DNA of 64,000 bases, from NCBI GenBank assembly GCA_043799545.1, contig JAZDNO010000020.1, positions 1 to 64,000 of the forward strand. The letters run 5' to 3'. This document shows, piece by piece, positions 1,238-19,888 of the stretch (within the stretch, counting starts at the first letter, position 1; every line of letters starts with the position of its first letter). The stretch comes from Methanobacteriota archaeon (GTDB lineage: Archaea; Thermoplasmatota; Thermoplasmata; SG8-5; DAIRED01). A program made the translations under genes and the position numbers. The notes under the pieces were generated by a model. The model had not been told where the DNA came from and ran no database searches. It saw nothing but the letters and a program-made list of their open reading frames with translations.

Positions 1238-1694
1238 AGCGCCGCCGAGGAGCCACGAGGGCAAAGGCCCAAATAGACGGCTTTGCGTTGGAAACCCGCA
1301 GCGAAGACGTCATTTGCGCGTTTGTAAGGAACATCCAGGGACAGCCCCGAGGGGTGAGACAAGGCGGCGCATATTTCGCCAATATATCTAGCATCTTCAC
1401 AGTCTCACATAAATGAACCTATACTACTCCGCGATTAACCTAATTCAGCATACACTTGTATCGGGAGATAATGACCATGGAATAGAAATACTCGAAAATA
1501 ACGGGTTCAAGAATGAACTGGAAAGTAAAACGAAAAAAGGTTCGTTTAATGAGGAGTAGACGACATTAGGCTCGGACGGGTGAAAAAATATATAGGATAA
1601 GGCAGCAATGTCGGATCGGTGAACACATGATGAACGAAAACACCGAGCTTAACGCTACGCCCCCTCGGGTTTTGTCCTTATATGCGTTCGGATC

Positions 1695-1747
1695 ACCTAA
1701 CAGGCGGGTATATGACTCAGACGTCAAATACCTGCAAGCCGTTTGGT
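1695..1747 (+). other. attC-like (59-base-element-type) recombination site 1
   Basis: ACCTAAC (RYYYAAC) ... GTTTGGT (one mismatch from GTTRRRY), with internal inverted repeats GCGGGTAT/ATACCTGC and TGAC/GTCA; just upstream of an RBS and the TIR gene. Confidence 0.6.
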
Positions 1748-1769
1748 GGAAAACTATGGAGGAAAATTA

Positions 1770-2159
1770 ATGACAAAAAAAAGAGCATTTATTAGTTTTG
1801 ATTACGACCATGACCTTGATATTAAAAATTTACTGGTGGGGCAGGCTAAAAATCCCGATTCTCCATTTGAAATTATTGATATGTCGATAAAAGAGGCAAT
1901 CTCTGAAGATTGGAAGGATAAAGCACGAACCCGTATCAAAGGGTGTGATGTAGCTATTGTATTATGTGGAGAATATACTGATTTTGCTACAGGTGTCTCA
2001 GCTGAATTAGAAATTACCCAAGAAGAAAACGTGGGTTATTTTCTACTGTATGGGAGGGCGGACAAAATATGTAAAAAACCAAAAAGCGCAAAGGCTAGTG
2101 ATAAATTATATAATTGGACTTGGGACAATTTAAAAAATTTAATTGGTGGTGGTCGATAA
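1770..2159 (+). CDS. TIR-like domain protein (ThsB/DUF1863 type)
   Basis: RAFISFDYDHD, DMSIKEA, VAIVLCGEYT and putative catalytic Glu in GVSAELE; GGAGG RBS at 1758 favours ATG 1770. Confidence 0.85.
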   Translation: MTKKRAFISFDYDHDLDIKNLLVGQAKNPDSPFEIIDMSIKEAISEDWKDKARTRIKGCDVAIVLCGEYTDFATGVSAELEITQEENVGYFLLYGRADKICKKPKSAKASDKLYNWTWDNLKNLIGGGR

Positions 2160-2224
2160 ATGCGAAAGACGTTAATTAAAGACCACATTTTACTCCTCGC
2201 AATTGCTTGGAGCGATGAAGAAAC

Positions 2225-2746
2225 ATGACTGTGAAAATACCAACATTTCTAAGCGTCGGTGAACCACACAATGAGGCACAGCGTAAGTATTTGGATGCAT
2301 TAGTTATATATTTAAGTAGACATGGTATTGTTGCAGAAACACTTGGTCGTTCATTTTGGTCTATTGAAAACCCATTAAGACCAGTGCAACAGAAGATGCG
2401 AGAAGTTAATGGCGCTGTCATTTTGGCTATGGAGCGATTCCATTCAGAAAAAGGTACCTATAAAGAATATAGTGCTTCGGGAAAAGTTGTTAACGACCAA
2501 TATTTTGTCACGGTTTGGACACAAATTGAAGCCGCCATGGCCTACCAACTTGAATTACCTCTCTTGATTTTAAAAGATGATAGGTTAGTTGCTGAAGGGA
2601 TGCTTGATCCAGGGATACACGAGTGGGTGATAGTTAGAATTAACCCTGAAAATCCTGATGAATTAAAACGGGATCCAATCAAAGCATTTATTGATAGTTG
2701 GATAGAAGCTGTTCGAAAATGCTATTACTCGAAGAAAGGTCGGTGA
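2225..2746 (+). CDS. Second TIR-like / Rossmann-like nucleotide-processing protein
   Basis: PTFLSVG N-terminal strand, GAVILAMER, WTQIEAAMAYQLELPLLILKD (TIR-like Glu helix followed by a P-hydrophobic strand). Confidence 0.6.
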   Translation: MTVKIPTFLSVGEPHNEAQRKYLDALVIYLSRHGIVAETLGRSFWSIENPLRPVQQKMREVNGAVILAMERFHSEKGTYKEYSASGKVVNDQYFVTVWTQIEAAMAYQLELPLLILKDDRLVAEGMLDPGIHEWVIVRINPENPDELKRDPIKAFIDSWIEAVRKCYYSKKGR

Positions 2747-2760
2747 AATATGGTGACGGC

Positions 2761-2842
2761 GTGTAACATCGGTTATGCGATTCGCTTCGCTCACACGAAT
2801 TGTGCCTTGAGTACAACTTCGCATACACTGAAAGCATTAAGC
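2761..2842 (+). other. attC-like site 2 (degenerate)
   Basis: GTGTAAC ... TATGCGA/TCGCATA inverted repeat ... ATTAAGC(GAAAT); lies between the TIR2 stop and the AbiV start. Confidence 0.6.
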
Positions 2843-2875
2843 GAAATAAACCCGTAGACTAATGGAGAATAAAAC

Positions 2876-3475
2876 ATGCAAAAAATAAATGCAGAAACGT
2901 TATATGATAATAGGAAAATGGCTTTATTGAATGCGAGAGAATTACTTAATGATGCACAGATATTATTCGAATCAAAGAGGTGGGCTAGATGTTTTTTCCT
3001 GGTACAAATTGCCACTGAAGAACTTGGAAAATATGGAATCATTATTTCATCAGCCATGAGTATAAAACACGGTTCTATTAATATAAGTAGTTTTATAAAG
3101 CGCTTTAAGAATCATAAGGAAAAGACAAGAAATATTCTGATGCTTGAAGACTTGAAGATATTTATCGATAATAAAGGTAAGTCTGAGTTGTTTAACTTCG
3201 ATTCAAGGAAAGAACACGCGGAAATGCAAGAGCAACTTAAATTTAGAGCGTTATATGCAGATTTTGATGAACGTGGAACACTTTGTATTCCATCCCAATT
3301 ATTTGGAAGAGATATATGTTCAATATCAATCAAGCTTCTAGAAAAAAGGGTTAGGTTAATGCAATCCTTTGAGAACGATATTGCTTCTAAATTTGATTTT
3401 AATAAAATAACAAAAGAAGAGATCGATGACTTTTATAACAAGATTGGACTTAATGAAATATTAAAGAAAAGATAA
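2876..3475 (+). CDS. AbiV-family (HEPN) abortive-infection protein
   Basis: NARELLNDAQILFE...RCFFLVQIATEELGK...NHKEK...RALYAD motifs typical of AbiV. Confidence 0.8.
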   Translation: MQKINAETLYDNRKMALLNARELLNDAQILFESKRWARCFFLVQIATEELGKYGIIISSAMSIKHGSINISSFIKRFKNHKEKTRNILMLEDLKIFIDNKGKSELFNFDSRKEHAEMQEQLKFRALYADFDERGTLCIPSQLFGRDICSISIKLLEKRVRLMQSFENDIASKFDFNKITKEEIDDFYNKIGLNEILKKR

Positions 3476-3488
3476 CTAACAAATTTTC

Positions 3489-3578
3489 GCCTAACAACGT
3501 AATATCATGATCGGCTCGTTAGACTCACCTTCGTCCAAATTTACTCCGCAAACTTCAGATAACCACCAGCCATTATAC
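3489..3578 (+). other. attC-like site 3 (degenerate)
   Basis: ATTTTCGCCTAAC is nearly complementary to the preceding cassette start TTAAGCGAAAT; TATC(A)TGA/TCAGATA inverted repeat; ends CATTATAC. Confidence 0.6.
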
Positions 3579-3667
3579 TAACAATAATTTTCTAACATTG
3601 GGGTGCTTTTCTTCTAATTGAACCCCCAATCGATTAATCAACCCCGTGGCATAAAGCATTTCGCCCC

Positions 3668-3741
3668 CTTCTTAAACCTTTCCTGTTCAGACAATGAGCC
3701 GAGAATACCTGGGTGTGCTATTTCCCCCACAGGTGACCAAG
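3668..3741 (+). promoter_or_regulatory. TATA promoter plus conserved operator-like motif and RBS (homologous to 14172-14246)
   Basis: CTTAAA-CCTTT-CCTGTTCAGACA ... CCACAGGTGA before ATG 3742. Confidence 0.6.
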
Positions 3742-4143
3742 ATGGTACACACAACAACCCAAGTAAACAACGCGCCGGGAGAAACCCCGGACGTGCTGGA
3801 GCCGATATCGTTCGATGCGACCGCCAAGATAGGGACCGCGCGCAACAAGTGCACGGAAATCCTGGAGATATGCGACGGGCTGGAAGCCAACGTCAAGGCG
3901 CAGATACGCGCCAGGATACAGGCCATCCGCCACGCGCTGACGGCGTTGCAGAACGACGTCGAAGAGATGATGGAGATAGGAGAGCCGGTGCAGCCTGAGA
4001 ACCAACAGTGGCCCCAGGTCAACCAGGCCATGCTCGACATCGAGGCGCTCGGCCACGAGGCGCGCATCTTCGTGGTGGACATGACGAGGTACCACGAGGT
4101 GTACCCGTTCGAGTGGCCCCCGGACCCAGACGTCCCCGACTAA
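3742..4143 (+). CDS. Hypothetical helical protein (island backbone)
   Basis: GC-rich ORF with strong third-position GC; AGGTGA RBS before MVHTT. Confidence 0.7.
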   Translation: MVHTTTQVNNAPGETPDVLEPISFDATAKIGTARNKCTEILEICDGLEANVKAQIRARIQAIRHALTALQNDVEEMMEIGEPVQPENQQWPQVNQAMLDIEALGHEARIFVVDMTRYHEVYPFEWPPDPDVPD

Positions 4144-4187
4144 TCGGCCTCCACGAAAACCCTTTTCTTTACTTTCAAGGTGATAAA

Positions 4188-4511
4188 ATGATGTCGCTGG
4201 AGCATTTCGCGCTGCTGGTTGTAATCGTCTCGTTCTTTGCTGTGCAGGTGTACACCAACGACAGGCTGCGCAGGCACGCGGTCGCCATCCTGACGAGGCA
4301 CCGGTCGAAGCTCTACGCTTTCCTGGACCCGGTGATAGATGATATCGCTGCGGAGCTGAACGCTGAGGTCCAGGAGCACTCGCGCGAATGGATTACCGAC
4401 GAGGTCCAGAGGCAGATGCTCGAGGTGGGGGTCTATGTCTTCACGGAGATGGGGAAGGAGAAGGCGCGGGAGCTAGTGGGAGATATCATCGAGGATATTT
4501 TATCAAAATGA
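4188..4511 (+). CDS. Hypothetical protein with N-terminal membrane anchor (island backbone)
   Basis: AGGTGA RBS before MMSLEH; hydrophobic FALLVVIVSFFAVQV. Confidence 0.7.
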   Translation: MMSLEHFALLVVIVSFFAVQVYTNDRLRRHAVAILTRHRSKLYAFLDPVIDDIAAELNAEVQEHSREWITDEVQRQMLEVGVYVFTEMGKEKARELVGDIIEDILSK

Positions 4512-4522
4512 CGGCACTGTTT

Positions 4523-5173
4523 TCAGAATAATTTTTCAATTATTCTTATACTACCTGTCAGCATTGCTATTGAATCAACTTTTTGGTAATCTTTATAATC
4601 GTGTTTATAGAGATTCTCCATCACACGAATTGTGTTTGCTACATGTGTGTTTTGTTTATTAATTAAATTATTTTTACTTGCCCATGTGATTAAAGCACAA
4701 AAATCAAATTTGGATGATGGAGCTTGTCCTGCCATGTTCGTATATTTAATTGTCAATGCTAACTCAACCGATACACCAGCCATGATACAACATGACCTTT
4801 CCATACCAAGTATGTAGTCATTACATGCTTCTTTGATAGTTTCAAAAACTTCTACCGGAGTTGTTGAATTTATATTTACCATCGGCTTTAGAGAGCCATC
4901 TTGTTGTTTCTGATATTTTACAACGTGGATATCAACTAGTGTTTTTAAACGCTTGTTGGTTTTTTGGCTATAATCTGCTACAGCTTTGTTATATCCCTGT
5001 GTATGGCCATCACGAAATCCTTCCGAGTATCCATCTGCCTTCCCTTTAGAATATCCGATAAGACCCCCACCGATAGCTCCCAATCCTCCCGAGATTAAGC
5101 CACCAACTAATCCGTCATCTTCTTGTTTCTCTGGTTTTTTCTGTGCAGTCATGGAAGCACACGATATTCCCAT
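4523..5173 (-). CDS. Glycine-zipper membrane protein with C-terminal DUF4145/HEPN-like domain
   Basis: GGLISGGLGAIGGGLIG; G-xxx-G repeats (YSEGFRDGHTQGY); SVELAL ... IRVMENLYKH C-terminal domain; AT-rich. Confidence 0.55.
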   Translation of the reverse strand: MGISCASMTAQKKPEKQEDDGLVGGLISGGLGAIGGGLIGYSKGKADGYSEGFRDGHTQGYNKAVADYSQKTNKRLKTLVDIHVVKYQKQQDGSLKPMVNINSTTPVEVFETIKEACNDYILGMERSCCIMAGVSVELALTIKYTNMAGQAPSSKFDFCALITWASKNNLINKQNTHVANTIRVMENLYKHDYKDYQKVDSIAMLTGSIRIIEKLF

Positions 5174-5337
5174 TTTTACGTATAATAATGTAGAGTATAA
5201 ACTTATCCCTCATTTCCCAAACTCAATTCCAACCCAGGCATAGACCGAGAGCGGAAGTTAATTTAGGATGCTGTGCATAGACGCTAAGAGAGATAAACTT
5301 AAATGGCAATCCGGCAATCCTAAGCCGTCGATTGCCC

Positions 5338-5511
5338 ATGAAAATAGAGAAGAAAGAGATTCGTCTCGAAGGATGCAACTGTATAAATTGCCGTCTGGAG
5401 CGAATGGAAACGGCTATCAACAATATGCACGAATCCGTCATACTCATTCTCGATAAAAATACTGAAATACCAGGTATGCCAAAAGAGAGAAACAAAATGA
5501 GTAGGAAGTAG
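5338..5511 (+). CDS. Possible small protein (57 aa) with CxCxxC
   Basis: MKIEKKEIRLEGCNCINCRLERMETAINN...; below the ORF-track length cutoff; no clear RBS. Confidence 0.3.
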   Translation: MKIEKKEIRLEGCNCINCRLERMETAINNMHESVILILDKNTEIPGMPKERNKMSRK

Positions 5512-5590
5512 TATAGACGAGGACGAATGGCATAAGACTATCTGGTTGACAAACAAAGGTGATGAAGCGATAAAGACATTACAAACTGGA

Positions 5591-6307
5591 TTAAGGAATT
5601 CGTAGGGTAACTTCCCTCTTCATGAACACAATTTTGACGTTTCTCGGTAAAGCCTTTCGTATGTCGCTGACCTTCGCGTAAAAGTTGGGAAAGGACTTCT
5701 TTGAATTGTGGAAGTGAATCGGTATGCACGTCGCCCCTTCCCCAAGTTTCAAGAATGAATCTAGGTTGGCTTCCTTCCCGATGATTGCCCAGACAGGGAA
5801 GAACACGATATCCGGTGCTTCCTTTATCATGGCTTTCGTCGCAATAGAGTCTCCCATGAAGAGGATCTTCTTACCGTTATAAATTATAAGAAAGGCGAGT
5901 CCCTCCGTGGCCTGGAGGACTCTCACCTGTACTCCGGCAATATCCACAGAGTCTCCAACATTGCACGGGCGCATGCGCTTGAAGAGCTTCCGAAGACCAT
6001 CGATATCCTTCGCCTCGAAACTCATCGCAAGCGATAATGGCTCGCCGACGGTTCTCGGGCAGCATATTGTCGTGGAGTCATTGCTGAGAGCCATGACCGT
6101 GTTAGAGTCAAAATGATCCCAGTGCTCGTGCGATATAAAGATGGCAGATGCCTTGCGCTCTTTCCTCGGGTTTAAGGTAGTACGAAGCAGATGATTCTCC
6201 CGCACGGGATCGAGGTAAAGGGAAGTATTCCCCGTCTGCATCTTCAGGCAAGAATGACCGAACCACATTATTCTAACATTAAAATTACCTTTGCTGTTCA
6301 TACCCAA
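5591..6307 (-). CDS. Metallo-beta-lactamase-fold hydrolase (UlaG/UPF0173-like)
   Basis: WFGHSCL, YLDP, FISHEHWDH (HxHxDH), FMGDS, IPIHF. Confidence 0.85.
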   Translation of the reverse strand: MGMNSKGNFNVRIMWFGHSCLKMQTGNTSLYLDPVRENHLLRTTLNPRKERKASAIFISHEHWDHFDSNTVMALSNDSTTICCPRTVGEPLSLAMSFEAKDIDGLRKLFKRMRPCNVGDSVDIAGVQVRVLQATEGLAFLIIYNGKKILFMGDSIATKAMIKEAPDIVFFPVWAIIGKEANLDSFLKLGEGATCIPIHFHNSKKSFPNFYAKVSDIRKALPRNVKIVFMKREVTLRIP

Positions 6308-6342
6308 GCCATCCCTCCACTAACAACCATCCTGGGCACTCT

Positions 6343-6486
6343 TCCGTTCGTTCCCAAGTGACGGTTCCTATTCGGTCTCACGACCTCTGAATGTACGTCA
6401 CACATATTAAAAATATCGACCCCGTGCCTTCGTTGAACTCGGATGAAGTTCACGGTCGAGGGTCTGAGCTACGAGACGATACGGTT
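6343..6486 (+). repeat. Cassette-junction site A: degenerate tRNA 3'-end fragment plus conserved arm with leftward TATA promoter
   Basis: TCCGTTCGTTCCCA then AGTGACGGTTCCTATTCG; 6353-6440 matches 10669-10756 at 85/88 nt; also GGATGAAGTTCACGG and CTGAGCTA...GACGATACGGT. Confidence 0.8.
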
Positions 6487-6491
6487 GAGGG

Positions 6492-6617
6492 TTACTTCTC
6501 GCCAAGCTCTCTAACTTCATCTGACTTCTTTACAGATGAGATGACAACAACCCTGCTAACATTTGTTTCATCTGGTTTCATTTTTACTTCCTTCTGTTCC
6601 TTCTCATCATCGGCCAT
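6492..6617 (-). CDS. Small charged peptide (41 aa) coupled to the upstream membrane protein
   Basis: MADDEKEQKEVKMKPDETNVSRVVVISSVKKSDEVRELGEK; GGAGG RBS; overlaps the stop of 6607-7374. Confidence 0.55.
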   Translation of the reverse strand: MADDEKEQKEVKMKPDETNVSRVVVISSVKKSDEVRELGEK

Positions 6618-7374
6618 ATCGAACCTCCATAATTTTATCCAAATCAGCCTTATCATAATGCGGGTATTTGTTATTAATTTCCATTACTTCCTTGTACTTA
6701 CCTTTAATCTTATTATGCATTTTCCACCAAATTGATACAACACCAGCAACACTAACACAGAATAACAATCCTATTTGAGCTAAATAGAAATCATACTTGT
6801 CTCCATTATCAATCATGTCTTGTGGATCCATTAAGGGCAGGAAAGAATAACTGAATAAAATAATGCCACAAAATATTAGAGTACTCATTGTTAGTATATG
6901 TCGAGCAATTTTCATATTCATGAATTCACATATCTTGATGTCCAGACTATTCCCACGAATCAAAGTATTAGTCAGTTCCTCTTTGGATTTATCCTTATAT
7001 TTTTCATATAACTCAATTTGATTTGGCCCCAATGAAAACATTACTTTTTCAGGGCTTAAATACAAAGATAATCCTAATAAAATCGACAATAGAACAAATG
7101 CAATCGATATCGCACAGATTAATGCAAAATTATCATAGATTTTAATTATAGCACTGTTATCTTCTGGCACAATCAAATCATTTAAAATGTAACTTAATAA
7201 CGCCAAGATAAAACCTATAACTCCTAATGCTAACGTAATAAATGAGCTGGCGCGCCCTAATAAGGTTTTATTAACATCAAGTATCTTATTTAAAGTTGAA
7301 TCACCTTCATTCTTAATCATCACAAGCGTGTCTAGCTTGCTTTCATTTGTAGGATCAATCATCGTAACCCTCAA
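6607..7374 (-). CDS. Multi-pass membrane protein (about 4 TM)
   Basis: Four hydrophobic segments; AT-rich; start may be ATG 7362. Confidence 0.75.
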   Translation of the reverse strand: MRVTMIDPTNESKLDTLVMIKNEGDSTLNKILDVNKTLLGRASSFITLALGVIGFILALLSYILNDLIVPEDNSAIIKIYDNFALICAISIAFVLLSILLGLSLYLSPEKVMFSLGPNQIELYEKYKDKSKEELTNTLIRGNSLDIKICEFMNMKIARHILTMSTLIFCGIILFSYSFLPLMDPQDMIDNGDKYDFYLAQIGLLFCVSVAGVVSIWWKMHNKIKGKYKEVMEINNKYPHYDKADLDKIMEVRYGR

Positions 7375-7383
7375 CCTCTACAT

Positions 7384-7687
7384 CCAATCGCTCATCCCCA
7401 AGTGGCGGTTCCTAGTCGTTCGTTTCACGAACTCTAAATACACTTCGTACCATAAATAATTCTCTACCCCGTCCCTTCGTTGGACTCGTGATTCCTCCTA
7501 AGTCCCCAAACCTAAGTGCTGGCCCATTATACCTAACAAAAGCCGGGATACAATGAGCCCATTCAGCTGCTAATCGTCGGAACCGTGCGCACTCCTGTCC
7601 CGCCGTCAAATTTAGGACGGAGATGCTCCGGCGAGGCATCCATGCGGCTTCTCGTCAATGAGATGGAGTTCATGGCCGAGGTGGCTC
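7384..7687 (+). repeat. Cassette-junction site B
   Basis: CCAATCGCTCATCCCCA (GCTCATCCCCA identical to site E), AGTGGCGGTTCCTAGTCG; 29 nt identical with site C (7458-7486 vs 8773-8801); GGCGAGGCATCCA; AGATGGAGTTCATGG. Confidence 0.8.
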
Positions 7688-7692
7688 ACTAA

Positions 7693-8691
7693 TTATCTGG
7701 TCGATGTTAAGTAATTACGATTGTACACCATATTTTGAAACAGTAATATTATTGGAATCAACTCAATAATTGCAAATTTTATCATCATAGCATTGTATAT
7801 ATTTATTATTTCCTTAAATTTAATTATTTCTGGTCTATCCTTTTTATTATGGTATAGATATAAACAGTCATTCCGCGTAATAAATTTACCATGAGCCAGA
7901 GTATTTCTCATTCTCCTTGTATCCGCTATTATTTCATTACGTTCACTCTCAACAAGTGATTTATATTTAAAATAAAGATTAAGTAATTTCATTCTTTGTT
8001 TATGATTCTGATTAGGCAATAACGCAGAGAACATTTTTACTCCTTGGTCCATATTTAACTGGAATTGGATTATCAATCCAAAAAGAATTAAATAAACTCT
8101 TGCCTGGCGATATTTTTTACGCTCTTTGTAAAAACTCTCGTAGATTGTTTTAATATTACCCAAATTGCCATCAATAATCGAGTAATGAAACCCAAGAGCT
8201 GATGGTGGGCTAATAATCATATTATATTCATCAATAGATTTGTCCAGCCATAATGTCCATAATTTACTAATAATTCGATGTGCTTCAAGATCGCCCCCAG
8301 TGTTTGTAAGAAAATCGGTTTTAGTACAATCACCAAGAATTCTTAATAGCAAATCTGGGTCTTTTTCACTTTTTATATATCCATTTATTTTCTTCACAAC
8401 ACATAATGTGTCAGTGTATCCAATTCTAGCTAACCTTTTTGTTAATAACCTGTACACTTTTGGATAAGTATCATATCGTGTCATTTGCCGCGAATATACC
8501 TCTTTTATTTGGTTGCATCCAACACATAATAAATTGGTCTTCCAAACAACTTTTTTTTTATTCAATGAAATACATGCTACTCTTACTCGTTCAACTGGCT
8601 CAAGCTTAAGTTCACTCGATAAACAATCTTCGCAAAAGAAATATGGGTTGTTATCTAAGAACTTCGATATTATAAAATCATTACCCAACAC
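7693..8691 (-). CDS. Zn-finger plus C-terminal HEPN-like protein
   Basis: N-terminal FFCEDCL...LCVGC; C-terminal RNTLAHG (R-x4-H HEPN motif). Confidence 0.65.
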   Translation of the reverse strand: MLGNDFIISKFLDNNPYFFCEDCLSSELKLEPVERVRVACISLNKKKVVWKTNLLCVGCNQIKEVYSRQMTRYDTYPKVYRLLTKRLARIGYTDTLCVVKKINGYIKSEKDPDLLLRILGDCTKTDFLTNTGGDLEAHRIISKLWTLWLDKSIDEYNMIISPPSALGFHYSIIDGNLGNIKTIYESFYKERKKYRQARVYLILFGLIIQFQLNMDQGVKMFSALLPNQNHKQRMKLLNLYFKYKSLVESERNEIIADTRRMRNTLAHGKFITRNDCLYLYHNKKDRPEIIKFKEIINIYNAMMIKFAIIELIPIILLFQNMVYNRNYLTSTR

Positions 8692-8704
8692 CTTTTTAGT
8701 TATA

Positions 8705-8960
8705 CGTTCGCCCCCAAGCGACGGTTTCTATTCGCCGGCTTCACAGGCTCTAAATATTGACGCACCTATATAAATTCTCTACCCCGTCCCTTCGTTGGAC
8801 TTGGGATTGGGGCTTGTATTATTGCCTAAGAACGCTGAGAGCCGTCTTCACTGGCAAGCGCTCCAACCGTGCGCTGCGCTGTCCCGTCGTCGTTGTCAGG
8901 TCGCGTGGCTCTGGCGAGGCATCCACGCCGCCGCTCGTCGTTTGGATGAAGTTCACGGCG
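8705..8960 (+). repeat. Cassette-junction site C
   Basis: CGTTCGCCCCCA then AGCGACGGTTTCTATTCG; ACCCCGTCCCTTCGTTGGACT; GGCGAGGCATCCACGC; GGATGAAGTTCACGG. Confidence 0.8.
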
Positions 8961-9169
8961 GAGTAGGCCGACCTTTACTACAATAACGGCTGTGTGCCCT
9001 TTAAAGCCAAAACGACGCGCAGTATCCCCTCGCTACGAATCCGTTTGTCTTCCACCTAAGCAAAATAAATTCAATATTGGCCAGACAAATAATTACACTC
9101 GTAACGAAACTAATTTATTCACAAGCTATGTATTATCATACATGCCAATAGATATGGCAGGATGATAAC

Positions 9170-9439
9170 ATGACTAGATATCGAGATGGAATAACCAGAC
9201 AAGCTGAAATACCAATGGCTGACCTCAATAAAAAAATTGACTCCTATCACGCCTTGTTGGTTTTGGGAAGGATAAATGATTTAACAGACGGAGAATGGAC
9301 TTCGTTCAATCTAGAGACAAACCTTCACTTCTCTGAATTGAGCGAGGTTGCACAAAAAAAGGTTCTTAAGATAAGGGACCAACAACCATCGCAACATTTT
9401 CGAGGCCAATATTCTAATCCACCAGATGATGATGAGTAA
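9170..9439 (+). CDS. Hypothetical protein (89 aa), inverted relative to neighbouring cargo
   Basis: Open AT-rich ORF with AGGA RBS. Confidence 0.6.
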   Translation: MTRYRDGITRQAEIPMADLNKKIDSYHALLVLGRINDLTDGEWTSFNLETNLHFSELSEVAQKKVLKIRDQQPSQHFRGQYSNPPDDDE

Positions 9440-9493
9440 TGAGTTCTGATGTTCCTAGATAAATCTCTGGTTGCTACTTAATTAAAACGATGA

Positions 9494-9958
9494 TTATTTT
9501 TTTGTCCTAAACTGGTATAGCGCCAACGATAATATAATCATTAAAATTCCCCCAGACACAAAAGTATATGGATTTTGATCTGGGAGCGTAGCCATCCCAA
9601 ATAATAGTATTGCTACAAATACTAAAAAGAGACATAATAAGGGTATTAACTCGCCAGCATTAGATTCCACGCTATTGTTACCTGCTCCAGTTAATGTTGC
9701 TCCATAATTATATTTCCAGGGAGATGTGCGGTAACCACTTTCTTTCATATGTGGGTGCTGACTTCTATGGCAATCTTCACATAGGCACACTAAATTATCG
9801 GAATAGTTTGATCCGCCTTTTGATAATGGAACTACATGGTGGGCATGTAATCTTATCCCTGATGCTCCACACTGTTCACATCGGCCGCCAGCTCTTGAAT
9901 AAGTTGCCTGTCGTTTCGAATCCCAATCCTCAGGGTAATCAGGGAAATTCCAACTCAC
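9494..9958 (-). CDS. HNH endonuclease with two C-terminal TM helices
   Basis: RCEQCG...LHAHHVVPLSKGGSNYSDNLVCLCEDCHRSQH; hydrophobic C-terminal hairpin. Confidence 0.85.
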   Translation of the reverse strand: MSWNFPDYPEDWDSKRQATYSRAGGRCEQCGASGIRLHAHHVVPLSKGGSNYSDNLVCLCEDCHRSQHPHMKESGYRTSPWKYNYGATLTGAGNNSVESNAGELIPLLCLFLVFVAILLFGMATLPDQNPYTFVSGGILMIILSLALYQFRTKK

Positions 9959-10019
9959 AGTTAGTTATTATGTACCACCATTATATGTTTTTCTATGTTC
10001 GTAACTTATAAAATCTATT

Positions 10020-10568
10020 TCACTTTCGATGCGCAAAGTCTATATCTATACCATAGTCGCTATCTTCGGAACTACTTACAGATAATTTAGGTTGGTTATT
10101 GTTAATTTCCTCCTCCAAGTGCTTTAAAACTTTCTCGCATTCAGTTAGTTGTAGACATTGTTCTAGGTCTTGTAATAATTTGCTACAGTTCGGCGAATAG
10201 GATTGTAGGCTAATCCTGAATGTATAATACTCTTTCTTACCAAATTCCTTATTACACCCTTTTTCCTCACCAGCTTTGATAATTGATAACACCTTTACAT
10301 ATTGATTGAAAAAATTATCTATATCTTTAGATGTCAAATTATATTCCTTTTCCAGGTCTGCTGAATACTTCAAATTTTGCCTAAGTGCATTTATGGCATT
10401 CCAATATATTGTGTTCTCTGCTACCTGAATAATATTTGGTCCAGCAATAGCTACCAAAGGTGCATTTTTAATTTGATTAATAATGTTCCTAGAATACTCT
10501 AAAGTAAGATTTAGCAACACATCAGACTTATCATGTATATCTTTACTTTCTTTTGATGCCATTATCAA
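10020..10568 (-). CDS. Hypothetical protein
   Basis: 182-aa AT-rich ORF; no recognised motif. Confidence 0.7.
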   Translation of the reverse strand: MIMASKESKDIHDKSDVLLNLTLEYSRNIINQIKNAPLVAIAGPNIIQVAENTIYWNAINALRQNLKYSADLEKEYNLTSKDIDNFFNQYVKVLSIIKAGEEKGCNKEFGKKEYYTFRISLQSYSPNCSKLLQDLEQCLQLTECEKVLKHLEEEINNNQPKLSVSSSEDSDYGIDIDFAHRK

Positions 10569-10658
10569 TCCCTTTTAATGACCTGATTTCTATCCTGTAT
10601 TTAAAAGGATTTGGAGGGGATACTACGCACGAGACGGGCACACAGCCTTAGCGTCCAG

Positions 10659-10897
10659 TCGGTCGTCCCCCAAGTGACTGTTCCTATTCGGTCTCACGAC
10701 CTCTGAATGTACGTCACACTTATTAAAAATATCGACCCCGTGCCTTCGTTGGACTCGTGATTCTCACTTTATACCCCATTCCTAAGTGTATCCAGATGTA
10801 CCGTGGAGAAACCGGCAAGGCATCCACGCGACCTCTCGTCGCTTACTGGTTGTTCAAGGTCCAGGTGCTGAGCTAAACGACGATACGGTCGTGGCTC
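10659..10897 (+). repeat. Cassette-junction site D
   Basis: CGGTCGTCCCCCA then AGTGACTGTTCCTATTCG; near-identical to site A over 88 nt; GGCAAGGCATCCACGCG; CTGAGCTA...GACGATACGGT; GTGGCTC end shared with B. Confidence 0.8.
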
Positions 10898-10917
10898 CCC
10901 CAGCCGATATCAAACAG

Positions 10918-12276
10918 CTAATAGAAGTTCTCGATTAAACGCTCACCATGTTCTAATATTTCTTGATAACTTAAACCAATGATGTTTTTCGAATCTTCTA
11001 ATGCCCAACGTATGTCGGAATCCTTTTTATAAACGATTAACGTTCCTTTAAAAACCGTTGCTGGAATATCTTCGTAAACTTGCGCATACATTTCTTTAAT
11101 TTCTCCCAGATATCCTCGCAATTGGCTAACAGCATCTTTAGTATTGACATTTTTATCGCTGGGACGTTTAAATTCGATAATGTGAATCTCGCGCGATCTT
11201 GATGTATAACCACCATCGAATATCACTAAATCTGGAATCATGCCAGTATCAGTTTTTCCTTTTGATACGATAAATTCAGGATGCTTCTTATAAAACAATT
11301 GAGAGATTGCGCCATTCTCTTGGTATATTTCAGATATTAAACTATGTCCCATTAGCCAGATATTGTCTTTTATCAAATCATGCGCTTCACATTCATAGGC
11401 ATCACCCTTATGAATAATACTTTTAAAGTCTGTCACAACTGAAATTCGATGTAAATATTTCTGATAAACTTCAAGAATTCCTTTATCTACTGGAATACTC
11501 ATTGTTTCATTAATTTGTTGATATGATGTTTCAAGCATTATATTTTTTAAATCATAGTGGGAGCTAGTTCTAGTCACCCCACTACCCAATATATATATTT
11601 CATACCCTCTTTGCCATATTTTATAGCTATCTTCACCTTCTTTTGGTAAAACTGATGTATCAATAGAATTTCTGACTTCTTGTGATATTGTTTTAATCTC
11701 TCCAATTATGTCCGATGGTGATGACGATTTTGGGATGGCTACGACCATGTCCACTCCATTAGTAAATATACTTAACTTTAATATCTGAAAATTATGTCGT
11801 TCAGCACGGTTAATAAAGCTGTTTTGAACATGCGTTGCACACTCAGACGTGGATATTGCATGCGCTTGATTTTTTGTCGAGAATATTAATCGGAATAACG
11901 TGAATTTATCACATGGTTCGTTTGTTATCTGGTTGACAATACTCCATTTTATTTTTTCTGTTGATGGTCTGTGTTGTTCATAATATTTCATCAAAATTAT
12001 GTATAGCGAACTTTTGACGTAATTATAAACTTCTTCCAACTTGTATTTCGGGCTTACAGAAATATCGAGCCATGTTGTAAAATTACTTGGAAAATATATC
12101 CCTTCAACCTTTACACGATCCAGTTCTTCAATTTTACTATAAAGTTCATTTTTCCATCGTCCAAAACTTTGCTTGATTATCGGCGCACTTACTTCCTCTA
12201 TCTGGATTCGATAAACAATGTAAAAAACCATTCCTTTTCCTTTACCGATATTAGCTAGCCATTCTCTTTTAGCCAT
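10918..12276 (-). CDS. Fusion of two degenerate IS200 TnpA (Y1-HUH)-like domains and a Shedu-like PD-(D/E)xK nuclease
   Basis: FRLIFSTKN...RAERHNFQILKLSIFTNGVDMVVAIPKSSSPSDIIGEIK...IWQRGY (TnpA fold, HUH lost); N-terminal SVSPKYKLEEVYNYVKS resembles a second copy; C-terminal IPDLVI...IIEFKRP...AVSQLRGY...LSYQEIL. Confidence 0.6.
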   Translation of the reverse strand: MAKREWLANIGKGKGMVFYIVYRIQIEEVSAPIIKQSFGRWKNELYSKIEELDRVKVEGIYFPSNFTTWLDISVSPKYKLEEVYNYVKSSLYIILMKYYEQHRPSTEKIKWSIVNQITNEPCDKFTLFRLIFSTKNQAHAISTSECATHVQNSFINRAERHNFQILKLSIFTNGVDMVVAIPKSSSPSDIIGEIKTISQEVRNSIDTSVLPKEGEDSYKIWQRGYEIYILGSGVTRTSSHYDLKNIMLETSYQQINETMSIPVDKGILEVYQKYLHRISVVTDFKSIIHKGDAYECEAHDLIKDNIWLMGHSLISEIYQENGAISQLFYKKHPEFIVSKGKTDTGMIPDLVIFDGGYTSRSREIHIIEFKRPSDKNVNTKDAVSQLRGYLGEIKEMYAQVYEDIPATVFKGTLIVYKKDSDIRWALEDSKNIIGLSYQEILEHGERLIENFY

Positions 12277-12323
12277 TATTCCACCATATTACTCGATAAT
12301 ACGCGAGGGGGTCCACAATCTTT

Positions 12324-12400
12324 GTTCGAATCCGCTCATCCCCAAGTCACGGTTCCTATTCGCGCTCACATGCCACAATGGGAGCGCCCATTTATAAAGT
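12324..12400 (+). repeat. Cassette-junction site E: best-preserved tRNA 3'-end fragment plus short arm and promoter
   Basis: GTTCGAATCCGCTCATCCCCA (12324-12344) parses as tRNA positions 53-73; followed by AGTCACGGTTCCTATTCG; TTTATAAA at 12391-12398. Confidence 0.8.
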
Positions 12401-12408
12401 TTGTTCGT

Positions 12409-12666
12409 TTACCCGAACTCTACGCCTTTATACTTCTCTCCAGATGGCGCCTTCGTCGCCCCCTCCACCCCGTCCTCGACCCCCATCATCATCTCCAGCA
12501 GTTCCTGGAACTTATCCGGATGCATCAGGACAAGAGCCACTCGCTCCTCTATCTCAGCTCCAACCTTCGTTTTGAACTCGATGGCGACGGCATCACCGTG
12601 TAGCCAGACGACGAACTCGTTGGCGTAGACCGGGAGCGGGCTACCATTCACCTTCGCCGTCTTCAA
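12409..12666 (-). CDS. DUF3467-like small protein (paralog 2)
   Basis: PVYANEFVVW...AIEFKTKVG...VLMHP..F; ends KYKGVEFG. Confidence 0.6.
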   Translation of the reverse strand: MKTAKVNGSPLPVYANEFVVWLHGDAVAIEFKTKVGAEIEERVALVLMHPDKFQELLEMMMGVEDGVEGATKAPSGEKYKGVEFG

Positions 12667-18577: not shown

Positions 18578-19392
18578 CCGTGATGGAGGTGGCGAGGAAG
18601 GTGTGCATCTGCGGCGACCCCGGCGTGGGTAAGAGTTCCCTGGTGAGGAGATTCGTCCTCCAGAGGTATGACGACAAATACCTGTCAACTCTGGGGACCG
18701 TGGTGTCGAAGAAATCAGTGGCAATCCCCCAGCTTGATTGCAACATGAGCCTCATGATATGGGACATCTCCGGACAGGCGGAGTTCAAGAGGATACACGC
18801 TTCTGCTTTCAGCAACTCGTCGGGGGGTTTTGTCGTTTACGACGTCCTTCGCCCCGAGACCCTGGAATCCGTGCAGGGCTGGATAGCGACGATGAGGCAG
18901 TGGGCGGGGGAGAAGGTCCCCATAACCATCCTCGCGAACAAAACGGACCTTCTTCCCAAGTCCGAGCGCCCACGCGCGGGGACGATGCTGGGATGTCCGA
19001 GCGTACCGACGAGCGCAAAGGCGGGGGAGAACGTCGATGACGCATTCCATTCCCTGGGAGAGGCCATAGCAAAACTGAACGGGATGCCGCCAATTCCGAC
19101 AATCGGCAATGCAAAAATCGAGGACCTCCCCGATAAATTCGAGAGTTCCGGCGAGCTGCTGGACTTCATCGCAATCAGCCTCTGCAAGACCCTCAAGGAC
19201 CAGGAGATGGGGATGCACATCCTCAGGAACCAGGTGACGAAATCCGGGATCGACTTCGTGCACATGCGGAAGGCCGACGCGGAGATGCTCGTCGACAGAT
19301 TGGGCGAAGTAGTCAAGGATTTCAAGGGCGGGCGAGAGGGGTCGGACATCAGGGTCAGGATGCACAGGGCGATAGAAAGGACCAAATGGTGA
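18574..19392 (+). CDS. Rab/Ras-like small GTPase with C-terminal helical extension
   Basis: G1 GDPGVGKS, G2 STLG, G3 WDISGQ, G4 NKTD, G5 SAK. Confidence 0.9.
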   Translation: MTVMEVARKVCICGDPGVGKSSLVRRFVLQRYDDKYLSTLGTVVSKKSVAIPQLDCNMSLMIWDISGQAEFKRIHASAFSNSSGGFVVYDVLRPETLESVQGWIATMRQWAGEKVPITILANKTDLLPKSERPRAGTMLGCPSVPTSAKAGENVDDAFHSLGEAIAKLNGMPPIPTIGNAKIEDLPDKFESSGELLDFIAISLCKTLKDQEMGMHILRNQVTKSGIDFVHMRKADAEMLVDRLGEVVKDFKGGREGSDIRVRMHRAIERTKW

Positions 19393-19396
19393 TTTT

Positions 19397-19888
19397 TTGG
19401 CAGAATACGTAAGGAAGGTCGTCCTGCTCGGCGACCCGATGGTTGGCAAGACCTCGCTCGTCCAGAGGTTCGTGAAGGACATGTTCGACGAGAGGTATCT
19501 CAGCACGATAGGGGCGAAACCGTCAAAGAAGGTCGTCAAGTGCGGGGGGCACACGGTCTCGCTGATGATATGGGATCTCGCGGGACACAGCTACGGGCTG
19601 CGCTCCGGTTTCTACGCTGGGGCGAAGGGCGCCCTGCTGGTGTGCGACATCACCCGCCGGGACACCTTGAACTCGCTCAACTCGTGGTACTCCGCGCTCG
19701 CGAAGGAAGTCGGGGATGTGCCGGCCATAGCCCTGGTGAACAAATCCGACATGGACGAGCGCGAGTTCGGACTCGATGAAGCCGGCGTCCAGGGTTTTCC
19801 GACACTTCTCACGAGCGCGAAAACCGGGGCGAATGTGAACGAGGCGTTCACACAGTTGACGGAGGCGGTTATCCGTGCGCGCCGCTGA
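19397..19888 (+). CDS. Rab/Ras-like small GTPase
   Basis: G1 GDPMVGKT, G2 STIG, G3 WDLAGH, G4 NKSD, G5 SAK. Confidence 0.9.
   Translation: MAEYVRKVVLLGDPMVGKTSLVQRFVKDMFDERYLSTIGAKPSKKVVKCGGHTVSLMIWDLAGHSYGLRSGFYAGAKGALLVCDITRRDTLNSLNSWYSALAKEVGDVPAIALVNKSDMDEREFGLDEAGVQGFPTLLTSAKTGANVNEAFTQLTEAVIRARR

Follow-up and report, generated by a model that had tools for sequence, protein, structure and literature searches.

A candidate gene-cassette platform in groundwater Thermoplasmata, built on a folded repeat with its own TATA-like box and adjoined by a Y1 transposase gene

The stretch of DNA studied here, called the window, comprises 64,000 nucleotides (nt) of contig C28 of genome G000, a 2.06 Mb, 94% complete genome of an uncultured groundwater archaeon of the Thermoplasmata (Thermoplasmatota). 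It contains an array of small genes that are separated by copies of a folded repeat, the arm, each ending in an invariant 22-nt core, CGAATAGGAACCGTCACTTGGG. We hold with moderate confidence that this is a gene-cassette array of an undescribed kind, integron-like in its working but devoid of integron parts, to which a Y1 transposase, homologous recombination and expression roles of the arm would all contribute. A previous sequence-only reading of the same DNA had reported five related non-coding sites, named A to E, and these sites are real: the core was found five times in the window (plus-strand starts 6353, 7397, 8713, 10669 and 12341), with at most two mismatches in each copy and none expected from shuffled sequence. 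The longer ordered blocks were also present as claimed, the ACCCCGTSCCTTCGTTG block being confined to sites A to D and the remaining ones corresponding to repeat families D1 to D5, with A and D 97% identical over 89 nt. Cargo and arms alternate in guanine-cytosine (GC) content, the AT-rich cargo ranging from 0.27 to 0.40 and the arms lying at about 0.5, in a genome at 0.59. No integrase was found between the five sites, as previously stated, either by a Pfam search of the window genes or by a genome-wide search for PF00589.

The array is read on the minus strand, which encodes all of its cargo genes except one small open reading frame (9170-9439). On this strand the order is backbone operon, site E, cassette 1, arm D, cassette 2, arm C, cassette 3, arm B, cassette 4, arm A, a terminal segment and convergent backbone genes; the window thus has four cassettes between a core-only entry site and a final arm. 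The attI-like site E consists of a promoter part (12363-12401), in which a TATA-like box (12390-12399) is followed by a 6-bp stem, and of core E (12341-12362). It lacks the 5' arm domain, only positions 264-337 of the arm profile being matched (12401-12333), and it abuts the backbone DUF3467-like gene (12409-12666), in agreement with its earlier description as a short entry site beside the backbone. Cassette 1 (10906-12340) carries a single gene found with Pfam (10918-12276, minus strand), and its two ends are predicted to form a duplex of -35.8 kcal/mol between the left half with its linker (12295-12342) and the right half (10863-10910). The encoded protein of 452 amino acids (aa) combines an IS200-type Y1_Tnp-like domain (expectation value 5e-9) with a Shedu SduA_C-like nuclease domain (expectation value 4e-5, below the family cut-off); judging from these domains, a hairpin-binding transposase fold may serve in it as the sensor of a Shedu-like defence nuclease. 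Arm D (10663-10905, core D 10669-10690) matches profile positions 5-98 and 179-335 and is devoid of the middle helices. Cassette 2 (8988-10668) contains genes at 10020-10568 (minus), 9494-9958 (minus, HNH) and 9170-9439 (plus), with an end duplex of -45.0 kcal/mol and, according to an inverted-repeat search, a two-part terminal inverted repeat (10637-10648 with 8988-8999, and 10614-10628 with 9017-9031).

Arm C (8705-8987), recognized by its profile match, includes core C (8713-8734) and is followed by cassette 3 (7705-8712), whose gene (7693-8691, 332 aa) has no family match and extends with its stop codon into the spacer of arm B; its end duplex of -26.5 kcal/mol is the weakest of the four. 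Arm B (7389-7704, core B 7397-7418) matches the profile over its full length. Cassette 4 (6495-7396) carries a 255-aa gene without family match (6607-7374), an end duplex of -45.1 kcal/mol and a perfect 13-nt terminal inverted repeat (7364-7376 with 6483-6495), the left half of which spans the GAGG right before the ATG. Arm A (6345-6494, core A 6353-6374) is a short form: its first helix region runs straight into the promoter-hairpin-core part, and the profile is matched at positions 11-67 and 238-337. Past core A, a terminal segment (4512-6344) bears a metallo-beta-lactamase-fold gene (5591-6307) and a DUF4145-like gene (4523-5173) and ends at the convergent backbone genes (3694-4511, plus strand); a closing arm and a right stem half were searched for in this segment and neither was found. 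Pfam and PADLOC named only the HNH protein, the Y1-like/Shedu-like fusion, a HEAT-repeat protein and DUF4145 among the cargo, the rest being unmatched.

Each window site proved to be the 3' end of a module of about 320 nt read on the cargo coding strand. The module opens with a spacer, which is followed by helix P1 (its 24-nt loop is variable), by helix P3, by the long-range helix P4 around a variable middle and by the small hairpin P5. A purine-rich stretch and a TATA-like box come next, about 20 nt that vary between copies separate this box from a 6-bp hairpin closed by a GAA loop, and the core stands last, with 5-100 nt between it and the next start codon. What had been taken for an appendage of the core is a folded module whose TATA-like box is placed to drive the next cassette, and the earlier plus-strand reading has to be turned around, since the cargo genes, the TATA-like box and the G-U-containing helices all read on the minus strand. 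Over 65 unique arms from genomes and metagenomes, the predicted pairs comprised 1683 Watson-Crick, 270 G-U and 9 A-C combinations. Two-sided changes were seen in helices P1, P3 and P4 and in the 6-bp hairpin, the stem of which exists in at least four fully complementary versions, and the consensus fold reached -26.7 kcal/mol on the sense strand against -15.3 kcal/mol on the antisense strand. It follows from this covariation and strand difference that the structure of the arm is read on the cargo coding strand, as RNA or as single-stranded DNA.

The core is identical across families while the adjacent hairpin stem drifts. In every copy, a box resembling a B recognition element and TATA box (BRE/TATA-like) precedes the core by a constant distance, and a gene starts just past the core, on the same strand, in 12 of 12 genomic copies, other arrays lying in the opposite orientation. 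The position of the box predicts a transcript start at the hairpin, with the core as leader. As each arm has its own TATA-like box, the cassettes need no single upstream promoter. Rfam gave no match at the gathering score over the whole window and none at an expectation value of 1 or below over 6300-12450. The possibility that arms are displaced ends of a backbone gene was rejected, as BLAST of the arms against the genome retrieved only other arms and arm fragments and as a paralogous DUF4257/DUF3467 operon on C19 has no core after its DUF3467-like gene. Paralogs of the two backbone flanks of the array, 81-88% identical, occur at both ends of this contig (G000:C19:935-1428 and 19149-19882); given the missing core, the flanks are ordinary paralogous genes outside the platform.

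Core copies numbered 12 in G000 (seven of them outside the window), 30 in its congener G001 and four in G002, a member of another family, while the core search in the other 19 genomes of the order gave one match with three mismatches in a single genome. Of the G000 copies outside the window, one is on C12, one is on C20 and five are found where C25 ends and C15 begins, these two contig ends probably being one array split by assembly. With the arm profile, full arms were detected in G003 and partial arm-like copies in four genomes of a third family, f4 (G015, G016, G019 and G021), as well as on one contig of another family; arms A and D and the fragment C15:1522-1584 are truncated. Moreover, an exact core is present on 27 metagenome contigs, which come from groundwater (including the Hainich H41 and JGI samples) and from other sources, and the longest run, on a contig of 12.2 kb, comprises 12 full arms with partial copies at both ends. 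With the arm profile, arrays of this kind are recovered from fragmented metagenomes, so that the cassette pool is open to direct cataloguing. One metagenome contig of GC 0.53 (L097, Ga0335085_10062332) has an exact core at 1351-1372 and no arm, TATA-like box or AT-rich cargo; the sequence may have matched by chance there or have an unrelated function.

The content of the arrays turns over between close relatives. At the locus of the window, the backbone flanks are about 7.9 kb apart in G000 and about 1.5 kb apart in G001 (C172), where they enclose one core and unrelated cargo; site E and its G001 ortholog are alike through the end of the core and diverge beyond it. With arms masked, the cargo is almost wholly different between these two genomes of the same genus. 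A complete 636-nt cassette is common to G001 and G002, i.e., to two families, at 82% identity and among different neighbours. When cargo was clustered and mapped, the order 28-11-12-29 in array locus L112 was found as 28-11-12-X-29 in L100, the pair 34-35 of L111 as X-35 in L112 and as 34-Y in L117, and the pair 14-28 of L112 as 14-Z in L096. Cassette order and content therefore differ between strains, and the same arm stands beside different cargo and in other orders in other genomes and on metagenome contigs, which is in line with the array of interchangeable cargo proposed from sequence alone. Some units have no cargo at all, an arm following right after a core, and five of the six copies have one fixed 12-nt junction behind different upstream arms. 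In such units (L118:128-446, L019 on G001:C320, L109:1836-1940, L099:127-437 and L114:57-371), the P1 loop bears an extra AT-rich insert of about 20 nt.

A cassette begins with the final Gs of one core and reaches to the CCT before the next arm, and the stretch after the core is complementary to the stretch before the next arm. Of 14 matched end pairs, 10 have an exact inverted repeat of at least 9 nt (9-13 nt), which varies between cassettes, whereas only 2 of the 182 pairings of mismatched ends reach 9 nt. For 49 non-redundant cassettes, the duplex energy averaged -40.1 kcal/mol with matched ends and -22.8 kcal/mol with mismatched ends, 84% of the matched pairs lying beyond the 5th percentile of the mismatched distribution. 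The resulting stem has three tiers: a constant outer one, formed between the final Gs of the core and the CCT that precedes P1, a middle one with three co-varying types, each linker type having its own spacer type, and an inner, cassette-specific one of 9-13 bp. The cassette behind core D, cassette C15a and a cassette in G099 share a nearly identical start of about 60 nt, the cargo proteins of the first two being unrelated. The G099 cassette lies on a 3.1-kb contig (G099:C158:1-3000) binned to another family, with one arm and a cassette start like that of window cassette 2 and C15a followed by different cargo, and reflects either inter-family transfer or a binning error.

The points at which exchanges break were charted by aligning arms at four of the strain polymorphisms. 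Upstream of cassette 35, L111 and L112 are unrelated up to the 5' edge of the arm and then 100% identical through arm, core and cargo. At the junction of cassettes 12 and 29, L112 and L100 resume identity on the cassette 29 side directly past the core. Downstream of cassette 34, L111 and L117 are identical through P3 and diverge beyond it, and downstream of cassette 14, L112 and L096 are identical through P3, patchy in the middle, identical again in the last part of the 5' domain and different in the promoter-hairpin-core part. In two of these four cases, the break falls at one or the other end of the cassette stem, in a sample too small to judge an excess. Besides, the types of last 5' segment, hairpin and linker combine freely across 35 arms. 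Such mosaic arms mean that homologous recombination or gene conversion clearly acts on the arrays.

The units had also been proposed to be mobilised in trans by a tyrosine integrase. The array holds no recombinase, so that any enzyme would act in trans, but no tyrosine integrase is linked to it. Instead, the family found beside the cores is Y1 (PF01797, Y1_Tnp): its three matches in G000 are either part of cassette 1 or no more than 1 kb away from a core site. The first is the N-terminal part of the cassette 1 fusion protein, the second is located 0.7 kb from the C12 core, and the third is a 151-aa gene (C25:29915-30370) followed by a gene for a leucine transfer RNA (tRNA-Leu), a degenerate entry site and the C25/C15 array. 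This C25 protein scored 89 bits against PF01797 and, aligned with IS608 TnpA and other solved IS200/IS605 transposases, has the HUH motif and the catalytic tyrosine in place, with DHVH under DHIH and YISAQ under YIENQ in the alignment to 2a6m and 2ec2. Its motifs (HUH, Y...Q, about 150 aa) fit subclass 1.1, the only IS200/IS605 TnpA subclass found in Archaea (Quentin et al. 2018, PMC6006769). Orthologs of 55-89% identity were found in at least 10 other genomes of the order, and PF01797 is present in 16 of its 22 genomes, mostly as one full-length copy.

In G001, G002 and G003, the Y1 ortholog is the sole PF01797 match and heads an array on the same strand; in these three and in G000, four genomes from two families, the main array begins next to Y1 and an entry-like site. 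The entry-like site, which combines an AT-rich box, CGTGACTTGGG and a linker with a version of the last 5' segment, adjoins Y1 in five genomes, three families and two arrangements: it lies within about 100 nt past the Y1 stop codon in G002 and G003 and after a tRNA in G000 and G001, and it stands upstream of Y1 in divergent orientation in G020 (f4). Arm-like copies are also located 1.6-1.7 kb upstream of a divergent Y1 in G015 and G019. No TnpB above the family cut-off was found in G000, and an origin from TnpB and its omega RNA was rejected on that ground. Neither was any other dispersed hairpin family, comparable to repetitive extragenic palindromes (REPs), found in G000 for Y1 to serve.

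The textbook example of a device that stockpiles and reshuffles genes is the integron and, to our knowledge, all known integrons use one family of tyrosine recombinases. The arrays described here resemble integrons and clusters of attC sites lacking integron-integrases (CALINs), including the archaeal integrons of Ghaly et al. 2022 (PMC9668308), in having an array of small cassettes, mostly of unknown function or related to defence, together with a recombinase gene and an entry site. They further resemble them in their secondary arrays without recombinase, in the folded, strand-specific repeat that stands at every cassette boundary with structure conserved above sequence, and in a content that varies between close relatives with cassettes recurring in other orders. 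However, no IntI-type tyrosine recombinase lies beside the array or within that of the window, the linked enzyme being a Y1 HUH transposase. Whereas attC is an imperfect palindrome of 57-141 nt with R''/L''-L'/R' boxes and a GTTRRRY core, the arm measures about 320 nt and has several helices and, judged by reading the alignments, a core that is not GTTRRRY. In addition, the variable stem joins the cassette ends across the cargo and not within the repeat, each repeat has its own TATA-like box, and breakpoints fall at several points of the arm, unlike attC, which always travels with the upstream cassette through one crossover.

Regarding the IS200/IS605 family (IS608, ISDra2) and its non-autonomous hairpin elements, the palindrome-associated transposable elements (PATEs), the likeness lies in the linked enzyme, a typical subclass 1.1 TnpA (PMC6006769), in units that always follow a fixed sequence, the core, without visible target duplication, in a structure confined to one strand, and in a hairpin at a fixed distance, 22 nt, before the border. 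In contrast, tnpA is here single-copy, conserved across the order and outside the units, TnpB is lacking, the units are tandemly arranged and contain unrelated passenger genes, both ends of a unit pair together without each having its own subterminal hairpin, and the constant part reaches 320 nt and includes a TATA-like box. On sequence criteria, the enzyme belongs to the IS200/IS605 TnpA family. Insertion sequences of this family are delimited by subterminal hairpins of their own, lie 3' of a fixed tetra- or pentanucleotide and occur in several copies per genome with tnpA inside, a definition that the units do not seem to fit. A single-copy, apparently domesticated Y1 beside repeats on which it may act also recalls REPs, the bacterial interspersed mosaic elements (BIMEs) that they form and the REP-associated tyrosine transposases (RAYTs, or TnpA-REP). 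REPs, however, are palindromes of 20-40 nt in hundreds of scattered copies without genes, and the present enzyme has the IS200-type Y...Q motif and does not belong to a RAYT subclass. A literature search found no description of Y1-linked cassette arrays.

According to the combined reading that we favour, the Y1 enzyme would act in trans on the window array and, in an IS608-like manner, cut and rejoin the folded sense strand at both cassette borders, which the end-to-end stem would bring together. Cassettes would be released as single-stranded circles and inserted 3' of a core, similarly to the 'peel and paste' of IS608, homologous recombination or gene conversion between arms would add shuffling, and the arm would supply both the promoter and 5' leader of the next cassette and the structured 3' trailer of the previous one. 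Within this account, a role of the Y1 enzyme itself is held tentatively, on the basis of its adjacency to the entry-like site in two arrangements, the invariant core beside a drifting hairpin and the sharp borders. The latter were seen at the 5' edge of the arm (L111/L112), right after the core (L112/L100), in the divergence of E and its G001 counterpart past the core and in the fixed junction of the cargo-less units. It is conceivable, though somewhat doubtful, that the system represents a second independent invention of the integron principle, in which cassettes with their own promoters, folded as single strands, are taken up, cut out and rearranged by a domesticated HUH transposase of the IS200 type; the enzyme would then recognise the 320-nt structured module together with the stem formed by the two cassette ends.

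Several observations weigh against such a role of Y1 or speak for an alternative in which the arm is an RNA-level module, exchanged by homologous recombination only. Under that alternative, the arm is a portable expression unit, with a promoter, a protective 5' hairpin and a conserved leader in its 3' part and the structured 3' trailer of the previous gene in its 5' part. The two cassette ends would pair in the messenger RNA (mRNA) over the ribosome-binding site, keeping possibly toxic cargo silent or stable, as in the fold-back of hok mRNA, which is a parallel for such 5'-3' pairing; cassettes would be swapped purely by recombination between arms after DNA uptake, Y1 being a bystander or serving something else. 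The breakpoints are scattered (at the two borders, past P3, in mid-arm and in the interval from the 5' domain to the TATA box) and the arms have a mosaic make-up, which fits homologous recombination or gene conversion and is unlike the fixed crossover of integrons. Folding is favoured on the sense strand, and the elaborate 230-nt fold with its conserved G-U pairs looks, from its predicted structure, more RNA-like than a transposase substrate. The left stem half often covers the GGAGG or GAGG before the start codon, and this and the RNA-like fold mean that the structure may serve the mRNA. The TATA-like box keeps its fixed distance to the core in every copy. Y1 orthologs occur in 16 of the 22 genomes, some without detectable arms, G021 has arm-like copies elsewhere yet ordinary GC in the 11 kb downstream of its Y1, G099 has an arm but no Y1 at 89% completeness, and the array of the window has no free-standing Y1. 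Finally, no circle or excision joint was seen: one public DNA run (Logan contigs, with a share of 0.06 of the sampled words) gave 12 short contigs of depth about 3 on the window, several of them identical to it, and the apparent joints all came from other arm copies, so that circles and excision joints could not be judged from this run. Nevertheless, an RNA-level module alone seems rather unlikely, since it leaves unexplained the entry-like site abutting Y1 in five genomes, three families and two arrangements, the position of all three Y1-family matches of G000 at core sites, the identity of the core across families beside a drifting stem, and the sharp borders. Besides, in the D and C15a cassettes the left stem half lies about 50-80 nt from the start codon, so that the ribosome-binding site is not masked there.

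If the arms were passive relics, i.e., copies of a duplicated intergenic or promoter region or decayed ends of insertion sequences with no present role in exchange, truncated arms (A, D and C15:1522-1584) and a last segment without closing arm past core A would come as no surprise; the compensatory changes in four helices, the cassette-specific end pairing, the identity of cores across families and the order polymorphism between strains make this very improbable. Least probable of all is the explanation originally given, that the cores are 3' ends of tRNA genes duplicated during tandem integration by a trans-acting, tRNA-targeting tyrosine integrase. Site E does read like tRNA positions 53-73 on the plus strand, and the second array of G000 sits between tRNA-Leu and tRNA-Ile. 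ARAGORN, however, detected no tRNA in the window and 40 in the genome, none of which matches any of the five sites: the best match to E has four mismatches in 21 positions, the agreement being mostly with the universal T-loop, and the other copies have 6-7 mismatches in 17-19 positions. The T-loop-like letters, GTTCGAATCC, are present in E and absent from the other 11 genomic copies; as the similarity between E and its G001 counterpart ends at the core, they belong to the linker proper to cassette 1. The search suggested for a cognate tRNA with a nearby tyrosine integrase returned neither, the four PF00589 matches of G000 (C10:213132, C10:219117, C12:73938 and C25:2690) lying elsewhere, none of them next to an array. 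In addition, the array head of G002 and G003 has no tRNA, and the functional signals are all on the other strand.

If the HUH-linked platform is confirmed, the strategy of stockpiling genes would have evolved more than once, a domesticated IS200 enzyme would have gained a cellular role in Archaea, and a new site-specific tool for single-stranded DNA would become available. Should the enzyme play no part, a new and well-supported structured element would remain in the arm, which unites a TATA-like box, a leader and a trailer in portable form. It marks a fast-turning pool of proteins, mostly of unknown function and a few nuclease-like, in groundwater Thermoplasmatota.

Other features were noted around the Y1 genes and arms. 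Between Y1 and tRNA-Leu, a partial copy of about 50 nt of the 5' half of tRNA-Leu was found at about 1925-2040 of L060 (G000:C25:28457-31801), also in L063, and is conserved in G001. In f4, the loci L074, L075, L067 and L072 (G015, G019, G020 and G017) show repeated GAATGC...GCATTC and CCGGTAAT...ATTACCGG hairpins downstream of Y1, which are absent from G000, and G015, G017 and G019 have a second partial copy of the C-terminal half of Y1 downstream of the gene. A GC-rich element of about 60 nt lies just upstream of the second Y1 gene of G000 (element C12:59020-59110, gene C12:58482-58985) and recurs on C2 at about 95000-95060; it may be an end of this IS200-like copy or a further small structured repeat. 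Elsewhere on C12, an isolated fragment of the 5' domain of the arm (72872-72983) is located about 1 kb upstream of a tyrosine integrase gene (73938-74411) and of tRNA-Arg (75005-75080), in surroundings that look like a conventional integrated element. In the window itself, a separate AT-rich island on the plus strand (1350-3600) encodes a ThsB-type TIR protein (1743-2159) and AbiV (2876-3475) and, being free of arm and core copies, represents a different kind of insert.

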